Assembly (NCBI GenBank): GCA_016287755.1
Contig: JAEEWT010000013.1
Location: forward strand, 48,177-112,176
DNA from: Prevotella sp.
Lineage (GTDB): Bacteria > Bacteroidota > Bacteroidia > Bacteroidales > Bacteroidaceae
DNA: 64,000 nt
Direction: 5' to 3'
Shown here: positions 13,110 through 60,601 of the stretch, one piece after another
Position numbering within the stretch: position 1 is the stretch's first letter
Layout: each line of letters opens with the position of its first letter
Made by a program: the position numbers and the translations under genes
The notes under the pieces: model-generated
The model's input: the letters and a program-made list of their open reading frames with translations, nothing else
What the model was told of the DNA's origin: nothing
Database searches by the model: none

Positions 13110-13198
13110 CGTACCTTTGGCTTTGCCGAATGTACTCACGTTCGGAAAAACTCAAATTTTGTTTGGTTTTTCGCTTACTTATTCGTACCTTTGGCTTC
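13110..13198 (+). repeat. Promoter-associated hairpin repeat, copy B (1 unit)
   Basis: CGTACCTTTGGCTT at 13110 and 13184 (74-bp period) enclosing TTTGCCGAATGTACTCACGTTCG and a GAAAAAC...GTTTTTC hairpin; ATG follows at 13199. Confidence 0.78.
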
Positions 13199-15055
13199 AT
13201 GAAACATTTCCACCCACTTCAAACCGACATTGCACGACCAAAGCAGTTCAATGATCCGTTTGATTACGAGCCACACCCGCTGAGTATCTTAGCGGTAGAA
13301 GAGGTGCAGCAGTATATCATGGAGCACCCTGAGATTAAGGAGGATGCTGATCAAGGGAAGATGTTTGGGGTGTTGGTTGTTTCTCTTCCGAGGAAGGACG
13401 AAGGAGAAAGGAGGAAGGAGATTTCTTCTGAGATACAGAATGAGGGTGCGGGAATTGGATTCTTGGCGGCGTATAGCGGATTGCTGGCTGGCAGGAACGA
13501 CTGGGAGTGGTTTGTGCCACCCGTGTTCGATGCGCAGGATCCTGATGGGTACTTCAAGGTGCATGAGCAGAAGATAACCGAGATGAACCACGAAGTGGAG
13601 TTGTTAGAAAAGGATTTGGATCATCTCTATCACCAGTCCGACTACCTGAAGATGCTTCGTACCACGGAGAACCTGCTCAGTGAACACGAGAAGAAGATGA
13701 AGACCGCTAAGGTGCTGCGCGACATGAAGCGTCTGCAACGCAACATCTCCCCTGAAGAGAATGCGGAGCTAATCCGAGAGAGTCAGTTCATGAAGGCCGA
13801 GATGCGGCGCATCAAGAAGCGCTGTGAGGAACTGGAGAAGCCGTGGAAGGAAAAGGAGCAATCACTGACAGACAGAATTGAACAACTGAAGAAACAACGC
13901 AAGGAGGCATCTGACGACCTACAGCGCTGGCTGTTCTCACAATACAAGATGAGGAACGCGCAGGGTGAGACCAAAGACCTCATCGAGATCTTCAACGACT
14001 ATAACGGTCAGCTACCCCCAGCGGGGTCGGGTGACTGCTGTGCACCGAAACTCCTGCAGTATGCTTTTGAGAACAACCTCCAACCCCTTTGCATGGCCGA
14101 ATTCTGGTGGGGCGCATCGCCCAAGATGGAGATCCGTCATCACCTGAACTATTATCCCGCCTGCAGAGGGAAGTGCCTCCCGATTTTGGGGTGGATGTTA
14201 TCGAGGAGGAAGGACGAAGGAGGAAGGACGAAGGAGATTACTTCTGAGATACAGGATTCGAAGGATTCAGCACAAGACTCATATACACAGGACATTTCTC
14301 CTTCCTCCCTCCTCCTTCCTCCTTCCTCGAAAAATATCCTCTTCGAAGACTCCCACCTCCTCGTGCTGAACAAACCCGCTGGGATGCTGAGTGTGCCGGG
14401 GAAGACTGGGGATGTGAGTGTGGAGAGCATGATGAGGGATTATCTGCATGATGATATGAATCCTATCATCGTGCACCGACTCGATATGGATACCTCAGGA
14501 CTGATGGTCGTTGCCAAGACTAAATGGACTTACACGGAGCTGCAAAAGCAGTTCCTGGAGCATCAGGTAGAGAAAACATACGTGGCTCTATTAGAGCACA
14601 TGCCCGAGGGAAAACCGCTCAAAGGCACCATCTCCCTACCCCTCCGACCGGATATTTATGACCGTCCGCGACAGCTGGTGGATTGGGAGAATGGGAAGGA
14701 GGCGATCACAGAATATTGGATTTCGAGGAAGGACGAAGGAGGAGGGAGGAAGGAGATTACTTCTGAGATACAGGATACAAAGGAGTCTGTTCAGGACACA
14801 GGCACCCAGTACATTTCTCCTTCCTCCTTCGTCCTTCCTCCTTCCTCGATAAGAATAACCCTCCGTCCCCGCACAGGGCGGACCCACCAACTGCGCGTGC
14901 ACTGCGCCCACCAGGAAGGATTGGGGGTGCCGATTGTGGGAGATGCGCTGTATGGACATCGGGCCGACCGCCTTTATCTGCATGCCGAAACACTGTCGTT
15001 CATTCATCCTAAGACGGGTGAACGACTCACCTTCACGGCACCCGCACCATTCTAA
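13199..15055 (+). CDS. rluA: RluA family pseudouridine synthase with long N-terminal domain, carrying three in-frame repeat insertions
   Basis: Start refined to ATG 13199 (MKHFHPL). Motifs GKMFGVLVV, AGSGDCCAPKLLQYA, NKPAGMLSVPG, VHRLDMDTSG, TGRTHQLRVH, RLYLHA. Confidence 0.93.
   Translation: MKHFHPLQTDIARPKQFNDPFDYEPHPLSILAVEEVQQYIMEHPEIKEDADQGKMFGVLVVSLPRKDEGERRKEISSEIQNEGAGIGFLAAYSGLLAGRNDWEWFVPPVFDAQDPDGYFKVHEQKITEMNHEVELLEKDLDHLYHQSDYLKMLRTTENLLSEHEKKMKTAKVLRDMKRLQRNISPEENAELIRESQFMKAEMRRIKKRCEELEKPWKEKEQSLTDRIEQLKKQRKEASDDLQRWLFSQYKMRNAQGETKDLIEIFNDYNGQLPPAGSGDCCAPKLLQYAFENNLQPLCMAEFWWGASPKMEIRHHLNYYPACRGKCLPILGWMLSRRKDEGGRTKEITSEIQDSKDSAQDSYTQDISPSSLLLPPSSKNILFEDSHLLVLNKPAGMLSVPGKTGDVSVESMMRDYLHDDMNPIIVHRLDMDTSGLMVVAKTKWTYTELQKQFLEHQVEKTYVALLEHMPEGKPLKGTISLPLRPDIYDRPRQLVDWENGKEAITEYWISRKDEGGGRKEITSEIQDTKESVQDTGTQYISPSSFVLPPSSIRITLRPRTGRTHQLRVHCAHQEGLGVPIVGDALYGHRADRLYLHAETLSFIHPKTGERLTFTAPAPF
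13389..13438 (+). repeat. Intragenic palindromic element, left arm plus core (rluA copy 1)
   Basis: CGAGGAAGGACGAAGGAGAAAGGAGGAAGGAGATTTCTTCTGAGATACAG, read in frame as PRKDEGERRKEISSEIQ. Confidence 0.85.
14201..14330 (+). repeat. Intragenic palindromic element, complete 130-bp copy (rluA copy 2)
   Basis: TCGAGGAGGAAGGACGAAGG... / ...CCTTCCTCCTTCCTCGA arms with core CTTCTGAGATACAG at 14241; encodes SRRKDEGGRTKEITSEIQ...ISPSSLLLPPSS. Confidence 0.9.
14723..14849 (+). repeat. Intragenic palindromic element, complete 127-bp copy (rluA copy 3)
   Basis: TCGAGGAAGGACGAAGGAGG... / ...CCTTCGTCCTTCCTCCTTCCTCGA with core CTTCTGAGATACAG at 14760; encodes SRKDEGGGRKEITSEIQ...ISPSSFVLPPSS. Confidence 0.9.
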
Positions 15056-35939: not shown

Positions 35940-36560
35940 CTATGCAAAAAGGGCATGCCAATGCAGGAAACGACGCACTCCTTCCTCACCAAATTTGGCC
36001 AGACTGCGTTCCGCCTGTTCCACTGTTTTTTCTATTTCGGGTCGTGTCTTGGAAAAGAACTTATCAGCATAGCATATCAGTTGTTCTTCCAAGGTCTCGG
36101 GCAGGAAGGGCTCATATGTTGTGGAGTGTGGAGTGTGGGGTGTGGAGTGAGAACACTTCTGCGATACACGAGAAATGTTTGTGGAGGGAGGAGGTGGAAT
36201 GGTGATGGGTAGGTGTTGTGATTGGATCTCGGCAACGGTCAGGCCAGCTCCTGTATGACGCTCACAAACCCGTGCATGACGGGGGAAGCCTTCTGCCCGC
36301 ATAATCTCTGCCCCTATCTGTCCGTGACACACATACGGTTCGGTACCGAAACATTCAATGCCAGGTGCATCGCAACGGAAGATGCCGATGTCGTGGAGCA
36401 TTGCTGCCTCCTCCACGAACTGACGGTCGAGGTGCAGTTCCGGATGTGCATCACAAATCTGCAGAGCCTTATCTGCCACTGCCCTGCTATGAACGAGGAG
36501 AATGCGTTTCAGCGCATTCTCCTCGGGATAATACTTATTAATGATACGATTAAAATCCAT
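35940..36560 (-). CDS. HD/HDIG domain metal-dependent phosphohydrolase with in-frame repeat insertion
   Basis: Start refined to ATG 36560. Motifs LVHSRAVA, AMLHDIG, CHGQIGA, ERHTGAG, ICYADKFFSK. Confidence 0.88.
   Translation of the reverse strand: MDFNRIINKYYPEENALKRILLVHSRAVADKALQICDAHPELHLDRQFVEEAAMLHDIGIFRCDAPGIECFGTEPYVCHGQIGAEIMRAEGFPRHARVCERHTGAGLTVAEIQSQHLPITIPPPPSTNISRVSQKCSHSTPHTPHSTTYEPFLPETLEEQLICYADKFFSKTRPEIEKTVEQAERSLAKFGEEGVRRFLHWHALFA
36121..36196. repeat. Intragenic heptamer element in the HD gene
   Basis: (GTGGAGT)n-GAGAACA-CTTCTGCGATACAC-GAGAAATG; core matches the rluA element 12/14. Encodes PPPPSTNISRVSQKCSHSTPHTPHST. Confidence 0.8.
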
Positions 36561-56518: not shown

Positions 56519-57520
56519 TTACTCTAACAGCTTACGTGCCAACTCCTCTGCCTCCTTCCGTGCCGGCTTCCCTGTGGCGGTCATGGGTAGGTGATCAACG
56601 AAAAGGGTGTGGCGGGGGGACCAGTATGGGGGGAGTGTGGAGTGTGGAATGTGGAATGTGGAGTGAGATATGCTTTTAGTTTGTGAATCCTCATATAGCA
56701 GCACTCCCACCTCTCCGAACTTCTCATCCTTCACCTTGGTCACCATAAACGGAACGGGAATATGGGGTTTCAGTAAACGCTCCAGCTCCTCGATCTGAAT
56801 CTTGATGCCTCCGGAGCAAATCACATTGTCTTTTCTGCCTAAGATACGGAAGCAACGACCGTCAGGACCGAACTCAGCAATATCGTTCGTAACAATCATC
56901 TCGTTACATACATGGGGGGCATGGATTACCAGACAGTGTTCATCATTCAGCGACACATCCACGCCATCAAAGGGAACATAGTAACTACTTGCCTCTGCAC
57001 CATTCAGTCGGCGCAGTGCTATATGCGAGAGTGTTTCCGTCATCCCGTACGTACTCCACACGAAATGAGGGAAATCTTTCAACGCCTGTGCCAGGTCATC
57101 ATCAATAGCACCTCCACCAATTATCAAGTGCCTGATATTCATCAGCTTGTCACGTTCTTCTGGTACCTGCAAGGTATTATATACCTGCATGGGAACCATG
57201 GCGGCAAAGTCGATTGGTTGTTCTATGCTGACCAACGGATGTCCGCTGGGCTCCACAGTGATCAGTCTCATCTTACGTTCCAAGGCTCGCACCACCATCA
57301 TCTTCCCCGCAATATAATCGGTAGAAAGACAAAGCAAGGCAGTATCTTCTTCCTTCAGTCCGAGGAAATCGCACGTGATACGGGCAGATGCCAGCATGCG
57401 CCGCTTCTCCACCCACAACGGCTTGGGCTTACCCGTAGAGCCGCTGGTGTGCACAAGGATCTTGTCGCTGGCATCGTTCCACGCAGCAAGAAAACGGTTT
57501 GTAGTTTCGGTTGCTGGCAT
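56519..57520 (-). CDS. menE: o-succinylbenzoate--CoA ligase (short Bacteroidota form)
   Basis: TSGSTGKPK, YGMTET, GRKDNVICSGG, TATGKP; lies near menC and menB. Confidence 0.85.
   Translation of the reverse strand: MPATETTNRFLAAWNDASDKILVHTSGSTGKPKPLWVEKRRMLASARITCDFLGLKEEDTALLCLSTDYIAGKMMVVRALERKMRLITVEPSGHPLVSIEQPIDFAAMVPMQVYNTLQVPEERDKLMNIRHLIIGGGAIDDDLAQALKDFPHFVWSTYGMTETLSHIALRRLNGAEASSYYVPFDGVDVSLNDEHCLVIHAPHVCNEMIVTNDIAEFGPDGRCFRILGRKDNVICSGGIKIQIEELERLLKPHIPVPFMVTKVKDEKFGEVGVLLYEDSQTKSISHSTFHIPHSTLPPYWSPRHTLFVDHLPMTATGKPARKEAEELARKLLE
56632..56673. repeat. Intragenic heptamer tract in menE
   Basis: GGAGTGTGGAGTGTGGAATGTGGAATGTGGAGTGAGATATGC; encodes ISHSTFHIPHSTL. Confidence 0.75.
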
Positions 57521-58983: not shown

Positions 58984-60063
58984 CTACTCCTGCTTATACC
59001 ACAATTGATCACCTATGATCTCCAACGGCATAGGGATATTGTCGGTGAACAGCTGTCCTGTTCCCAAGCCCTGCGGACGTTGGATGTGCGGACCATAGAG
59101 ATAGGCCGTGAGGTGAGCAATGGCATTCAGACCGACATTGCTCTCCAATGCACTGGTAATCCATGAGCCGATATGACGGTCGTTAGCCAGATCAATCCAC
59201 TCCTTCGTACCCGCCATTCCTCCATGGAGAGAGGGCTTCAGAATGATATAGGCAGGTTTGATGATGTCGAGCAACTGACCTTTCGTATAGGAATCGTTCA
59301 CACCGATGAGTTCCTCGTCGAGGGCGATAGGTATCGGCGACTCCCTGCAAAGGAAAGCCATGTCGCCCCACTGTCCCTGACGAATAGGCTGCTCGATGGA
59401 ATGAATATCATACAACGACAACTGCTCCAGTTTCTGCAAGGCATCATCGGGCGAGAAGGCACCATTCGCATCTACCCGCAGCTCAATCTCCCGCCTACTG
59501 TAACGGCTCCTGATCTTCTTGAGCAACTCCAATTCCTGATTGAAATCGATAGCCCCGATCTTCAGCTTGACACAATGGAAGCCCTGCGCCAACTTCTGTT
59601 CAATACGCTCTCGCATCTCTTCAAAAGTACCCATCCAAACAAGTCCGTTAATGGGAATCCCTTCTTCTCCCCTACCGAAGGGAGTGTCGAAAAGCATCGT
59701 GGAACCAACCTGCAGGTTCAAGAGCGCTGTTTCCAGACCGAAGAGCATGGAGGGGTAGTCTTGTGGAGTGTGGAGTGTGGAGTGTGGAGTGAGAATAGTT
59801 CGAGGAAGGAGGAGGGAGGAAGGAGGAAGGAGATTACCAATAGGATTCTCTGAAACAAAGGATTCGCAGAAAGTAGAGAGTTTTTCTGCATAATTGGGGA
59901 TATCGTCGCACGACAGATTCGGTAGGGGCGCACACTCCCCTATGCCCTGCCTACCGTTCTCATCGGTCAGGGTGATAAACCAGGAACGACGGGTGGTGTA
60001 AGTACCACGGGATGTTCCGGCTGGCTGCTTGAAGTGCAGCACTCGTTCTTGTATTTTATACAT
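58984..60063 (-). CDS. menC: o-succinylbenzoate synthase with in-frame repeat insertion
   Basis: GIGECAPLP, INGLVWMG, KLKIG, RVDANG, EQP, ALDEEL, ILKPSLHGG, SALES. Confidence 0.93.
   Translation of the reverse strand: MYKIQERVLHFKQPAGTSRGTYTTRRSWFITLTDENGRQGIGECAPLPNLSCDDIPNYAEKLSTFCESFVSENPIGNLLPPSSLLLPRTILTPHSTLHTPQDYPSMLFGLETALLNLQVGSTMLFDTPFGRGEEGIPINGLVWMGTFEEMRERIEQKLAQGFHCVKLKIGAIDFNQELELLKKIRSRYSRREIELRVDANGAFSPDDALQKLEQLSLYDIHSIEQPIRQGQWGDMAFLCRESPIPIALDEELIGVNDSYTKGQLLDIIKPAYIILKPSLHGGMAGTKEWIDLANDRHIGSWITSALESNVGLNAIAHLTAYLYGPHIQRPQGLGTGQLFTDNIPMPLEIIGDQLWYKQE
59763..59840. repeat. Intragenic chimeric heptamer element in menC
   Basis: (GTGGAGT)4-GAGAATAGT joined to TCGAGGAAGGAGGAGGGAGGAAGGAGGAAGGAGATTAC, the rluA-type arm; encodes GNLLPPSSLLLPRTILTPHSTLHTPQ. 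Confidence 0.85.
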
Positions 60064-60072
60064 AAGTACAGG

Positions 60073-60601
60073 TTTTTAGACAGAAGAACATATTTTTTAG
60101 ACAAAAGAACAAAAGGACATAATTATTAAAACTCTATGGTTTTCGAAAAACACGGTATTTACGTTTGACTTCAATTTTGGGAGAGCCAAAATTAATTAAT
60201 AGACCATCATCAATGTGCGTGGCTGTCAGATAGTTAACCAACTGAACTTCATGGGCTGCCACCAAATTATTTACGGCTTTCAGTTCAACGATTACTCTTT
60301 CATCTACGATTAAGTCCGCCTTGAATTCTCCCACGATTTCTTCATCGTAATAAACATTCATCGGGCACTCGCTTTCATAGAAAATACCGCGTTTGTCCAA
60401 TTCTATCATGAGTGCATTTTTGTAAACAGATTCCAAAAAGCCTGGTCCCAACTGCATTCTTACATGATACGCACTATCTATGATTGTCTTTATTAACTCT
60501 TCTACATCCATCTCTATCATAAATCCTTATGGCTTATATCTTGAACATTTATTATTATGTCCTTTCGTTCTTCTGTCTAAAAAACATGTCCTTTTGTCTT
60601 A
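60073..60601. mobile_element. Inverted-repeat-bounded GxxExxY cassette (candidate mini-element)
   Basis: 34-bp IRs at 60093-60126 and 60551-60584 (31/34 identical) plus partial outer copies, bracketing a single gene. Confidence 0.55.
60134..60520 (-). CDS. GxxExxY protein (PD-(D/E)XK nuclease fold)
   Basis: 128 aa; LGPGFLESVY, KADLIVDERVIVELKAV, QLVNYL, GLLINFG. Confidence 0.93.
   Translation of the reverse strand: MIEMDVEELIKTIIDSAYHVRMQLGPGFLESVYKNALMIELDKRGIFYESECPMNVYYDEEIVGEFKADLIVDERVIVELKAVNNLVAAHEVQLVNYLTATHIDDGLLINFGSPKIEVKRKYRVFRKP

Follow-up and report, generated by a model that had tools for sequence, protein, structure and literature searches.

In-frame hairpin repeats are best known from Rickettsia, whose palindromic elements (RPE) were reportedly described by Ogata et al. 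in 2000; we found no description of such elements in Prevotellaceae in the literature. RPE (summarised in PMC10969869) are palindromic repeats of about 100-150 bp which occur both between genes and in frame within housekeeping genes, where they add surface peptides by read-through. They are lineage-specific, proliferate and then decay, and no transposase has been identified for them. The Prevotella element described here shares all of these properties. It differs from RPE in having arms made of tandem heptamers, in carrying several arm "dialects" on one loop, in nesting, and in the coexistence of several element types in the same protein loops within a population. The hosts differ as well, RPE residing in an obligate intracellular alphaproteobacterium and the Prevotella element in a free-living rumen member of the Bacteroidota. 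No sequence relation between the two has been shown.

Two other groups of small repeats are relevant. REP/BIME and REPIN elements are mobilised by RAYT (PMC3116915, PMC3733652), and an occasional REP lies within a gene (PMC3733652). Like the Prevotella element, REP hairpins are concentrated just past gene ends, are few in promoter-bearing divergent gaps, and form clusters and inverted doublets. However, REPs are 20-40 nt long, with a head that reads GTAG or CGTC, and rely on RAYT, a Y1 transposase, whereas the Prevotella element is about 120 bp long and has TCGAGGA ends without such a head, and PF01797 is absent from the genome. Bacterial MITEs such as Correia/NEMIS, ERIC and the Coxiella QMITEs (PMC5896051; reviewed in PMC10969869) are likewise small, non-autonomous, dispersed and bounded by terminal inverted repeats, and some of them add peptides to proteins. 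The norm for MITEs is a target-site duplication and ends shared with an insertion sequence, neither of which was found for the Prevotella element.

The tandem arms, in turn, recall the cyanobacterial STRR and small dispersed repeats, which Elhai et al. are said to have described in 2008. TAACTGA repeats (PMC4679880) and long simple-sequence repeats (LSSR; Mrazek et al. 2007, cited after PMC4679880) belong to the same background. Heptamer repeats of the STRR/LSSR type share with those of Prevotella an excess of period 7, many unit types, fast changes in unit number and nesting, but they are mostly direct intergenic arrays, whereas in Prevotella mirrored arrays form stems around a conserved unique loop and many of them are translated. 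In sum, the Prevotella element is an RPE-like and REP/MITE-like selfish palindromic family, which works like RPE without being filed as a member of it. As its arms are built of heptamers and its host belongs to the Bacteroidota, common descent with RPE is unlikely, although no RPE sequences were compared.

The window, by which we mean the whole analysed stretch of 64,000 nucleotides of Prevotella sp. DNA, contains a gene for an RluA-family pseudouridine synthase with three repeat sites in its one open frame (Table 1). The protein consists of an N-terminal domain of about 330 residues followed by the catalytic domain, and PF00849 matches residues 386-571 of the ORF with an E-value of 2.2e-27.

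Table 1. Repeat-bearing features of the window (positions are those of the window)
Feature	Position	Strand	Description
RluA-family pseudouridine synthase gene	13199..15055	+	618 aa; ORF and translation; host to three repeat sites
Copy 1 (site 1), half element	13386..13441	+	residues ~63-86; translation PRKDEGERRKEISSEIQ
Copy 2 (site 2), full hairpin	14201..14333	+	linker between N-terminal and catalytic domains; translation SRRKDEGGRTKEITSEIQDSKDSAQDSYTQDISPSSLLLPPSSKN
Copy 3 (site 3), full hairpin	14721..14852	+	beta-hairpin turn of the catalytic domain; translation SRKDEGGGRKEITSEIQDTKESVQDTGTQYISPSSFVLPPSS
Solo (GGAGTGT)n array	36118..36151	-	in a 214-aa gene; ACACTCC run C31:84294-84327
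Solo (GGAGTGT/GGAATGT) arm	56628..56667	-	in a 334-aa gene; C31:104804-104843
In-gene member	59758..59837	-	(GGAGTGT)n array adjoining a GGAGGAA-type arm; translated in the 359-aa ORF 58984-60063 as ...LLPPSSLLLPRTILTPHSTLHTPQ...

A sequence-only reading of this DNA had proposed three related in-frame elements in the gene, and they are indeed present, as one half element and two full copies of about 130 bp. The insert peptides agree with those quoted in that reading; KEITSEIQD and ISPSSLLLPPSS belong to the translated insert regions. The core that it had called identical, CTTCTGAGATACAG, has exactly three occurrences in the window, all of them on the + strand (13425, 14241 and 14760). When up to two mismatches were allowed, the chance expectation was 0.41, and 4 matches were reached in none of 100 shuffles. 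A left part of 56 nt is common to copies 1-3 with an identity of 86-91%, and copies 2 and 3 are 86% identical over 128 nt. The rluA copies are closer to each other (86% identity) than to any other copy (at most 79%), which suggests that they may have spread, or been converted, within rluA.

Copies 2 and 3 are the imperfect hairpins that had been claimed, with arms of 32 and 34 nt, respectively, each 91% complementary. In copy 2, the left arm (14206-14237) and the right arm (14297-14328) enclose a loop of 59 nt (14238-14296); the corresponding parts of copy 3 are 14723-14756, 14816-14849 and 14757-14815, and its loop is also 59 nt long. Folded as RNA, copy 2 gives -56.6 kcal/mol (z -5.7) and copy 3 gives -71.4 kcal/mol (z -8.6). 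The TCGAGG...CCTCGA ends attributed to all three elements hold for these two only, since copy 1 begins with CCGAGG and has no right arm. It comprises a left arm of GGAGGAA/GGACGAA heptamers and the beginning of the loop (CTTCTGAGATACAG), and has no fold as RNA (z -0.5).

The three inserts are the three longest segments of the protein with a predicted pLDDT below 50. These segments span residues 66-84 at copy 1, flanked by strands 54-62 and 86-93, residues 336-376 at copy 2, and residues 512-549 at copy 3, flanked by strands 501-510 and 551-557. Mapping onto the structure prediction, as had been proposed, thus places the inserts in predicted disordered loops between secondary-structure elements. 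The alignment with E. coli RluA (2i82) covers residues 380-508 and 549-618, and copy 3 falls between E. coli residues 139 and 146. The subfamily models TIGR00005 and PRK10158 match the protein in two parts that break at insert 3.

The element is not confined to rluA. The GGAGGAA arm was found at 47 places in the genome, a 48-contig draft, and a loop profile search identified at least 46 hairpins with a common 60-nt loop, both between and within genes, in the genome search that the sequence-only reading had proposed. A profile of the loop alone recovers copies at different loci when the arms are masked. In the canonical unit, which is about 120 bp long, the outer end reads TCGAGGA and is followed by 4-5 heptamers in tandem, which make up the arm; then come a loop of about 60 nt without repeats (GAGAATAGTACTGAGATAC...CTTGAAGCATATCTC) and the arm in mirror image. 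The family is broader than the rluA copies in that there are many heptamer arm types, several of which share one loop. The flanks are AT-rich, often reading TTA/TCGAGG...CCTCGA/TAA. The size, dispersal and placement known from RPE recur here, with units of ~120-130 bp, 32-34-bp stems, at least 46 copies and in-frame copies at tolerant positions. Outside this genome, the loop family is present in the genomes G041-G044 (those of loci L028-L031); copies with the loop at high identity occur in three further species and 23 metagenome contigs. The family was not found in 200 other genomes of the genus.

Could such repeats have been made in place, by slippage at fragile AT-rich spots and by strand-switching replication that turns arrays into palindromes, so that their likeness is fortuitous? 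The genome holds 428 tandem arrays of period 7, compared to 3-26 for periods 5, 6 and 8-11, and about 300 of the 428 are solo arrays of many unit types. Small indels relative to the comparison genome G041, which is ~95-96% identical, are mostly changes in unit number, and the array found at a given site can differ by strain. Together with the missing transposase and target duplication, these observations speak for an origin in place. The non-repetitive loop speaks against it: independent slippage cannot explain a 60-nt loop shared by at least 46 unrelated loci, three further species and 23 metagenome contigs, and whole units of 138-297 nt, loop included, are cleanly present or absent. Hence, we consider formation in place unlikely for loop-bearing copies. 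The solo arrays are a different matter: they could have arisen by slippage, and to that extent the family might not be mobile at all.

The most likely explanation, to which we assign a probability of about 0.8, is that the three inserts belong to a lineage-specific, non-autonomous, hairpin-forming dispersed repeat that is REP/MITE-like between genes and RPE-like within them. Its copies have dispersed to unrelated loci and are cleanly gained or lost between near-identical genomes. In comparison with G041, clean presence/absence indels of 138, 201 and 297 nt were observed. No target-site duplication was found in three filled/empty pairs (L126:3084-3223, L134:3304-3506 and G041 C2:103657-103955) and, as a result, a clean indel cannot be distinguished from a precise deletion. 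Copies decay through internal deletions that leave solo arms or short remnants of the ends, such as those at C10:59983, C12:145697 and C4:24188 of the Prevotella genome and in the rluA genes of L108 and L109. The sequence-only reading had inferred a non-autonomous mobile family. The dispersed homologous copies and their presence or absence at ~95% identity sustain this part, and it is on these alone that the word "mobile", which should be understood as putative, rests; neither a transposase nor a target-site duplication could be found in its support.

Copies also cluster beside and inside one another. Arrays of unlike unit types adjoin 24 times, whereas 7.8 ± 2.6 such cases are expected, and nested copies are present. 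Arms of different types occupy orthologous sites in different genomes at rluA site 3, C39:24531 and C31:104855. Conversion of the arms alone was considered for these sites and rejected, as the loops at rluA site 3 differ too. Since, in addition, loops of type I resemble each other wherever they occur, it is simpler to assume that the whole element was replaced. We infer that an occupied site may attract further copies, after which the older layer would be deleted. Such re-occupation and deletion would leave the same three rluA loops with different element types in different strains.

The orthologs of rluA display this turnover. Empty sites with short native loops, for which a search had been proposed, occur in P0080-P0087, L030, L031 and L111 (site 3), and copy 3 is almost completely lost in the 97%-identical alleles P0032, P0039 and L108, the last of which retains a 13-nt remnant of the deletion at site 3. 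L029 and L110 carry a GGAGTGT-arm element at site 3 instead of copy 3, and the allele of P0047 and P0062 contains a C-type element followed by the remnant of an A-type right arm. Site 1, occupied by a half element here, holds a full or chimeric element in other strains (P0040, P0058). Among 63 close orthologs, 21 combinations of states were found at the three sites, and for sites 2 and 3 each of the four A/B combinations is represented. Other Prevotellaceae have unrelated heptamer arrays in the same RluA loops. These observations uphold the earlier proposal that rluA is a repeated target. It is also the only gene with three sites in the genome, but this fact taken alone has P = 0.065 and makes rluA only a marginal hot spot within a single genome.

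Alternatively, the inserts could be selected features, namely charged or proline/serine-rich linkers that tune RluA, for example in RNA binding or domain spacing. They are in frame, the sites are filled in nearly all close relatives, and dN/dS of the inserts is below 1 in most comparisons (0.2-0.6, small samples). However, other strains carry unrelated peptides at the same sites (RKDEGG.../...SPSSLLLPPSS, RSVECGVW.../...HSTLHTPHS and RGYGGTKARGYE...), near-complete deletions are found in 97%-identical alleles, and inserts are missing altogether from relatives at 66% identity. The same DNA also occurs between genes and in unrelated enzymes, and disorder is predicted for the inserts. Moreover, as judged from sequence comparison, the arms in rluA are conserved as nucleotides and not as amino acids: their synonymous divergence is 0-0.02, compared to 0.29-0.63 for the backbone. 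Selected linkers are thus a very improbable explanation. The backbone without inserts has a dN/dS of 0.08-0.13, and this value of ~0.1 places RluA under strong purifying selection, so that, under the dispersed-repeat reading, the inserts are presumably passengers which form disordered loops by read-through, although there are no RNA or protein data. The earlier statement that the family remodels proteins is better worded as the addition of tolerated disordered loops.

Passengers can survive within genes if the peptide does not depend on the frame, if the coding strand has no stop codon, and if the insert lies at a surface turn or linker with the frame kept; the copies satisfy all three. Because seven is coprime to three, a heptamer array is translated into an identical cyclic seven-residue peptide in every frame (GGRRKEE, or FLLPPSS on the other strand). 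Neither strand of the common heptamer units contains a stop codon. Arrays whose units are free of stops on both strands lie within genes in 33% of cases, compared with 25% for one strand and 2% for neither; in 45 of the 54 cases involving units stop-free on one strand only, that strand was the coding one. These in-gene counts rest on a crude custom gene caller; six proteins were checked against Pfam and five of them matched. Besides RluA, at least five enzymes carry in-gene copies. The insert is spanned by a Pfam domain in KsgA (RrnaAD), an M16 peptidase, an alpha-amylase and a glutamate-synthase-like Pyr_redox_2 protein, and lies just N-terminal of the domain match in an isochorismate-synthase-like chorismate-binding enzyme.

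Most copies are located just downstream of stop codons. Of the intergenic copies, 13 are in convergent, 21 in tandem and 4 in divergent gaps; those in tandem gaps lie a median of about 12 nt past the stop codon of the upstream gene. This placement, with its preference for convergent gaps, would suit hairpins that function as RNA or DNA, stabilising or processing 3' ends between genes, or serving as RNase III or ribosome-pausing sites that set the expression of rluA. The stems of 32-34 bp are very stable, and the arms covary: 92.7% of cells are paired across copies, both sides have changed in 19 of 32 pairs, and none of 500 shuffles matches this. Nevertheless, the stem mismatches (GT 24, AC 18) are without strand bias, elements are found in either orientation with respect to genes, no U-tract follows the stem, and copies are freely lost between near-identical genomes. 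Nothing in Rfam scored above threshold; the miRNA-hairpin look-alikes did not exceed 37 bits, where the gathering scores are 60-137. A position past the stop codon is also expected of any selfish insert after purifying selection. We regard a functional hairpin as quite unlikely, and selection on the arms at the RNA level is not indicated. We infer instead that a DNA-level process, either template switching from arm to arm or conversion, may keep the two arms alike.

An error of assembly or binning, in which repeats induce chimeras in a metagenome-derived draft, had to be considered as well, given that the draft is in 48 contigs and short repeats can mislead assemblers. The sequence-only reading had named this as a possible refutation. 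The identical RluA protein is, however, recorded in a cluster of 37 member sequences, and dozens of independent ENA, NCBI and JGI assemblies have these inserts in identical places, and the sequence variation among them leaves the frame intact. An artefact can be practically dismissed.

The agent that moves the dispersed repeat has not been identified. PF01797, the Y1 transposase of the RAYT/IS200 type, has no match in the genome, and 6 of the 14 reference genomes searched as a control were positive. Among the predicted proteins, no transposase was found in multiple copies, but insertion sequences may be hidden in a draft assembly. The only gene with three copies in the genome resembles, by eye, what we take to be a primase-type gene of integrative elements. 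No phage or virus carrier was matched in IMG/VR or a phage collection. Genes framed by inverted heptamer arms were examined as an autonomous form and rejected, being ordinary genes with elements at both borders. A more far-reaching idea is that heptamer-armed hairpins are a distinct kind of Prevotellaceae mobile DNA without classical transposase or target duplication, inserted by a hairpin-directed process or by template switching that prefers existing hairpins, and with arms renewed by slippage and arm-to-arm copying. We put this forward only tentatively and consider it rather doubtful. If it is true, essential proteins throughout the family would carry standing polymorphism in the length and sequence of their loops.

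Prevotella and Segatella are dominant in gut and rumen, and their genomes are known mostly from metagenome bins. If in-frame hairpin repeats are routine there and turn over by strain, apparent protein diversity would be inflated, domain matches would be split (as are the RluA models here), ortholog clustering and strain typing would be disturbed, and messages would contain 30-bp RNA stems. The family carries the phenomenon known from RPE beyond reduced intracellular genomes, into a free-living anaerobe, and offers a simple rule for the tolerance of repeats within genes, namely a period coprime to three and stop-free units. The many allelic states at three fixed RluA loops offer a tractable case for selfish DNA that adds disordered loops, one that also suits the study of how palindromes are copied and kept symmetrical without a known transposase.

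The window contains three further array-bearing sites (Table 1). The array at 36118 lies in a predicted gene at C31:84116-84757, and a core-like match, CTTCTGCGATACAC, is found at 36156. The site of the solo arm at 56628 holds a nested GGAGGAA-arm element in its G041 ortholog (L140:1325-1438, compared with C31:104855). The member at 59758 comprises two runs, C31:107934-107972 and 107977-108009. A GxxExxY cassette at 60043-60599 was considered as a mobiliser and set aside, as its inverted repeats are of another kind. This cassette is itself present in some strains and absent from others.

The 618-aa product of rluA matches PF00849 (Pfam, E 2.2e-27) and also the RluA subfamily models; the match to the latter is broken in two by an insert within the catalytic domain. 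Exact matches to the 14-mer CTTCTGAGATACAG lie at 13425, 14241 and 14760, one per repeat copy (0.41 expected by chance with up to 2 mismatches), and a 56-nt left part is common to all three copies. Copies 2 and 3, which are 86% alike over 128 nt, are hairpins with arms of 32/34 nt (91% complementary) and loops of 59 nt; their predicted RNA folds reach -56.6 kcal/mol (z -5.7) and -71.4 kcal/mol (z -8.6), respectively. Copy 1 is a left arm with the start of the loop only and does not fold as RNA. The sequence-only reading, which had described three in-frame palindromic insertions, was right in all details that we checked. The nearest relatives of each copy are the other two, which suggests, on sequence comparison, spread or conversion inside the gene. 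No other gene of the genome has three sites, a result that is marginal by itself (P = 0.065).

The window lies at C31:48177-112176 of a 3.21-Mb genome in 48 contigs. Among its named relatives, bins of rumen Prevotella come closest. The mobile family inferred from rluA was found genome-wide and wider than originally reported: the GGAGGAA/GGACGAA arm occurs in 47 places, about a dozen of them full hairpins and the others solo arms, and a loop-only profile found 46 copies. The genome holds 428 period-7 tandem arrays, compared with 3-26 for periods 5, 6, 8, 9, 10 and 11; their units include GGAGGAA (52), GGAGTGT (51), GAACTTT (47), CAATTTT (41) and GCAAGAA (25), among others. Some 120 arrays are matched by a mirrored partner and so form roughly 60 hairpins. 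Slippage in place would account for the solo arrays, but it cannot produce a 60-nt loop common to unrelated loci, and one loop, GAGAATAGTACTGAGATACAGTATTCATATACAAAACCACTTGTACTTGAAGCATATCTC, is indeed common to canonical hairpins of differing arm type.

The arms covary: in 30 copies, 92.7% of the arm cells are paired and both sides have changed in 19 of 32 pairs; none of 500 shuffles scored as high, and slid controls were 40-62% paired. The order of unit variants is particular to each copy and mirrored between its two arms. Stem mismatches (GT 24, AC 18) lack strand bias, which points to a DNA-level process behind the arm pairing and away from selection acting on a single RNA strand. The loop family is present in compared genomes G041-G044 and in 23 metagenome contigs; none was found in 200 other genomes of the genus, in Segatella copri or Leyella stercorea, or in virus and phage collections. 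No Rfam family matched the repeat above threshold, and the source genome yielded no Y1/RAYT transposase, no multi-copy transposase and no autonomous-looking gene framed by heptamer arms. An unidentified trans-acting enzyme recognising hairpins, or replication template switching, might copy the elements.

Ortholog states were read from protein and DNA alignments, and the empty sites for which the sequence-only reading had looked to orthologs were found. Orthologs of ~66% identity have short native loops without elements at sites 1 and 3 (e.g. EIMEGLGDKHPR at site 3), and L111 (82% identity) is empty at site 3 with sites 1 and 2 filled. In 97% identical alleles (P0032, P0039, L108) copy 3 is cut down to a 13-nt right-arm remnant, and in P0048, P0072 and L109 a right arm of different type is all that remains at site 3. 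With identical flanks, the same site in L029, L110 and many others holds a GGAGTGT-arm element with another loop variant. A third element type (RGYGGTKARGYE...) also occurs among the orthologs and is followed, at site 2 of P0047 and P0062, by the right-arm remnant of the previous element. In some strains a separate ~72-nt repeat (…TTGGAGCAGCGAGRGCCAAAGATGCTKGCATCRATTTGGCCGAGTCGYGACAA…) is nested in the heptamer arms of rluA and read in frame as TFGAARAKDAGIDLAESRQKSTKLM. The 63 close orthologs that were fully typed show 21 state combinations, with A and B types at sites 2 and 3 in 4/4 combinations. Unrelated heptamer arrays occupy the same or nearby rluA loops in other Prevotellaceae.

The distant rluA orthologs of Segatella copri HDE04 (L074; SGKEISGKEISGKDIPEKEIPEK) and Leyella stercorea (L104; NSKFKTQNSKF from (CAAAACT)n) have repeat-encoded inserts of their own at other catalytic-domain loops, so the habit is family-wide and the units are lineage-specific. 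The separate ~72-nt repeat described above also interrupts a (GAACTTT)n array in G041 (L132:10210-10325).

Coordinates of the rluA gene, its inserts, whole-unit indels and associated repeats (C, contigs of the source genome unless stated; L, comparison loci)
Feature	Position	Strand	Remarks
rluA ORF, 618 aa	13199-15055	+	single open frame, translation
RluA low-confidence segment at insert 1	residues 66-84		beta-hairpin turn; pLDDT below 50
RluA low-confidence segment at insert 2	residues 336-376		inter-domain linker; pLDDT below 50
RluA low-confidence segment at insert 3	residues 512-549		beta-hairpin turn; pLDDT below 50
Whole-unit indel, 138 nt	L126:3084		no target duplication
Whole-unit indel, 201 nt	L134:3304		no target duplication; directly 3' of TAA stop codon
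Whole-unit indel, 297 nt	G041 C2:103657		no target duplication; nested element
Separate ~72-nt repeat	L110:2240-2320; C12:28680-28750; C45:39930-39998		L110: rluA site 2, another strain
(TATA)n-loop hairpins (second family)	C4:152996-153191; C7:52241-52441; C31:32277-32471; C43:1320-1511		
GC-rich stem-loops at element ends	C10:142455; C4:24569; C2:17124; C47:51085; C39:68175; L151-L155		L151-L155: metagenome loci

Gain and loss were followed against G041 (which holds L028), ~95-96% identical in syntenic DNA, over ~300 kb. No target-site duplication was found at the whole-unit indels of this comparison. Deletions left an end remnant or solo arm at C10:59983 (4-nt microhomology at its ends), C12:145697 (84 nt lost in frame within a gene) and C4:24188. 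Arm types differ at the orthologous sites C39:24531 and C31:104855, the element at C39:67927-68175 is nested in one genome and simple in the other, and unit-number changes are many. Arrays of differing type are adjacent 24 times (expected 7.8 +/- 2.6). Intergenic copies favour convergent gaps (13/38, versus 12% of intergenic length) and avoid divergent ones (4/38, versus 22%); in tandem gaps they lie a median of ~12 nt past the upstream stop codon.

As three heptamers make 21 nt, or seven codons, an array yields one cyclic peptide in every frame: (GGAGGAA)n gives GGRRKEE and its complement FLLPPSS, exactly matching the RluA strings RKDEGGRRKE and SPSSLLLPPSS. By our own crude gene calls (2140 genes, 83.7% coding), 111 arrays lie in genes, 122 across a gene end and 195 between genes, and 76 genes hold at least one. 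By the same calls, arrays are in genes in 33% of cases when stop-free on both strands, 25% when stop-free on one and 2% when both carry stop codons; for in-gene arrays stop-free on one strand, that strand is the coding one in 45/54. Pfam matches confirm that full hairpins are located inside genuine domains, or next to them, in KsgA (RrnaAD), a chorismate-binding enzyme, an M16 peptidase, an alpha-amylase and a Pyr_redox_2 (glutamate-synthase-like) protein. Mapping onto an AlphaFold model (mean pLDDT 70.7), as had been proposed, placed all three RluA inserts in low-confidence segments. Relative to E. coli RluA, the third falls between residues 139 and 146. The backbone dN/dS of 0.08-0.13 in four comparisons indicates that rluA is a functional gene. 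Synonymous change is pS 0-0.02 in the arms versus 0.29-0.63 in the backbone, which argues for constraint on the arms at the nucleotide level.

We consider it likely (probability about 0.8) that the repeats are a selfish, non-autonomous, palindromic family. Between genes it would behave like REP or MITE elements, and in genes like Rickettsia palindromic elements, although retention in mRNA was not shown; stop-free, frame-neutral arms and sites in flexible loops would explain its tolerance there. Filled sites seem to attract further copies, an inference from nesting, end remnants, clustering and the rluA allelic series, and older layers would subsequently be lost. The family works like the Rickettsia elements, but relatedness was not shown; it fails the tests for REP/RAYT and the duplication test for MITEs, and shares its period-7 excess with cyanobacterial STRR-type repeats. 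Our literature searches turned up no account of the family in Prevotellaceae.

Several other repeats were observed. In a second hairpin family the arms are likewise built of heptamers, (CATGTTT)n, (AAATAAC)n or (TGCATGT)n, and the loop is a different one, very AT-rich and ~130 nt long. Small GC-rich stem-loops with 4-nt loops (e.g. GGCCACCCCAAAGGGTGGCC, AACGGCTAGCCCGTT) often directly adjoin element ends, and the segment inserted at the clean L126 indel includes one; they may be terminators that serve as targets, or they may belong to a composite unit. A further palindromic family with ends CCCTCCCTCACAGGGAGGGG shows presence/absence between G041 L129:5887-6044 and C4:25923 (156 nt versus 9 nt). 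Directly upstream of the rluA start, a promoter-like repeat unit ending CGTACCTTTGGCTT is duplicated at 13110-13198; 59 nt there (13132-13192) are absent from G041, and an indel at G041 L128:10267 consists of a 76-nt unit of this type. Finally, a gene of the GxxExxY type (128 aa; 60043-60599) that carries inverted repeats of its own, ~34 bp long, adjoins ORF 58984-60063; this 555-nt cassette is replaced by 53 nt in G041 and is thus itself a unit of gain and loss.
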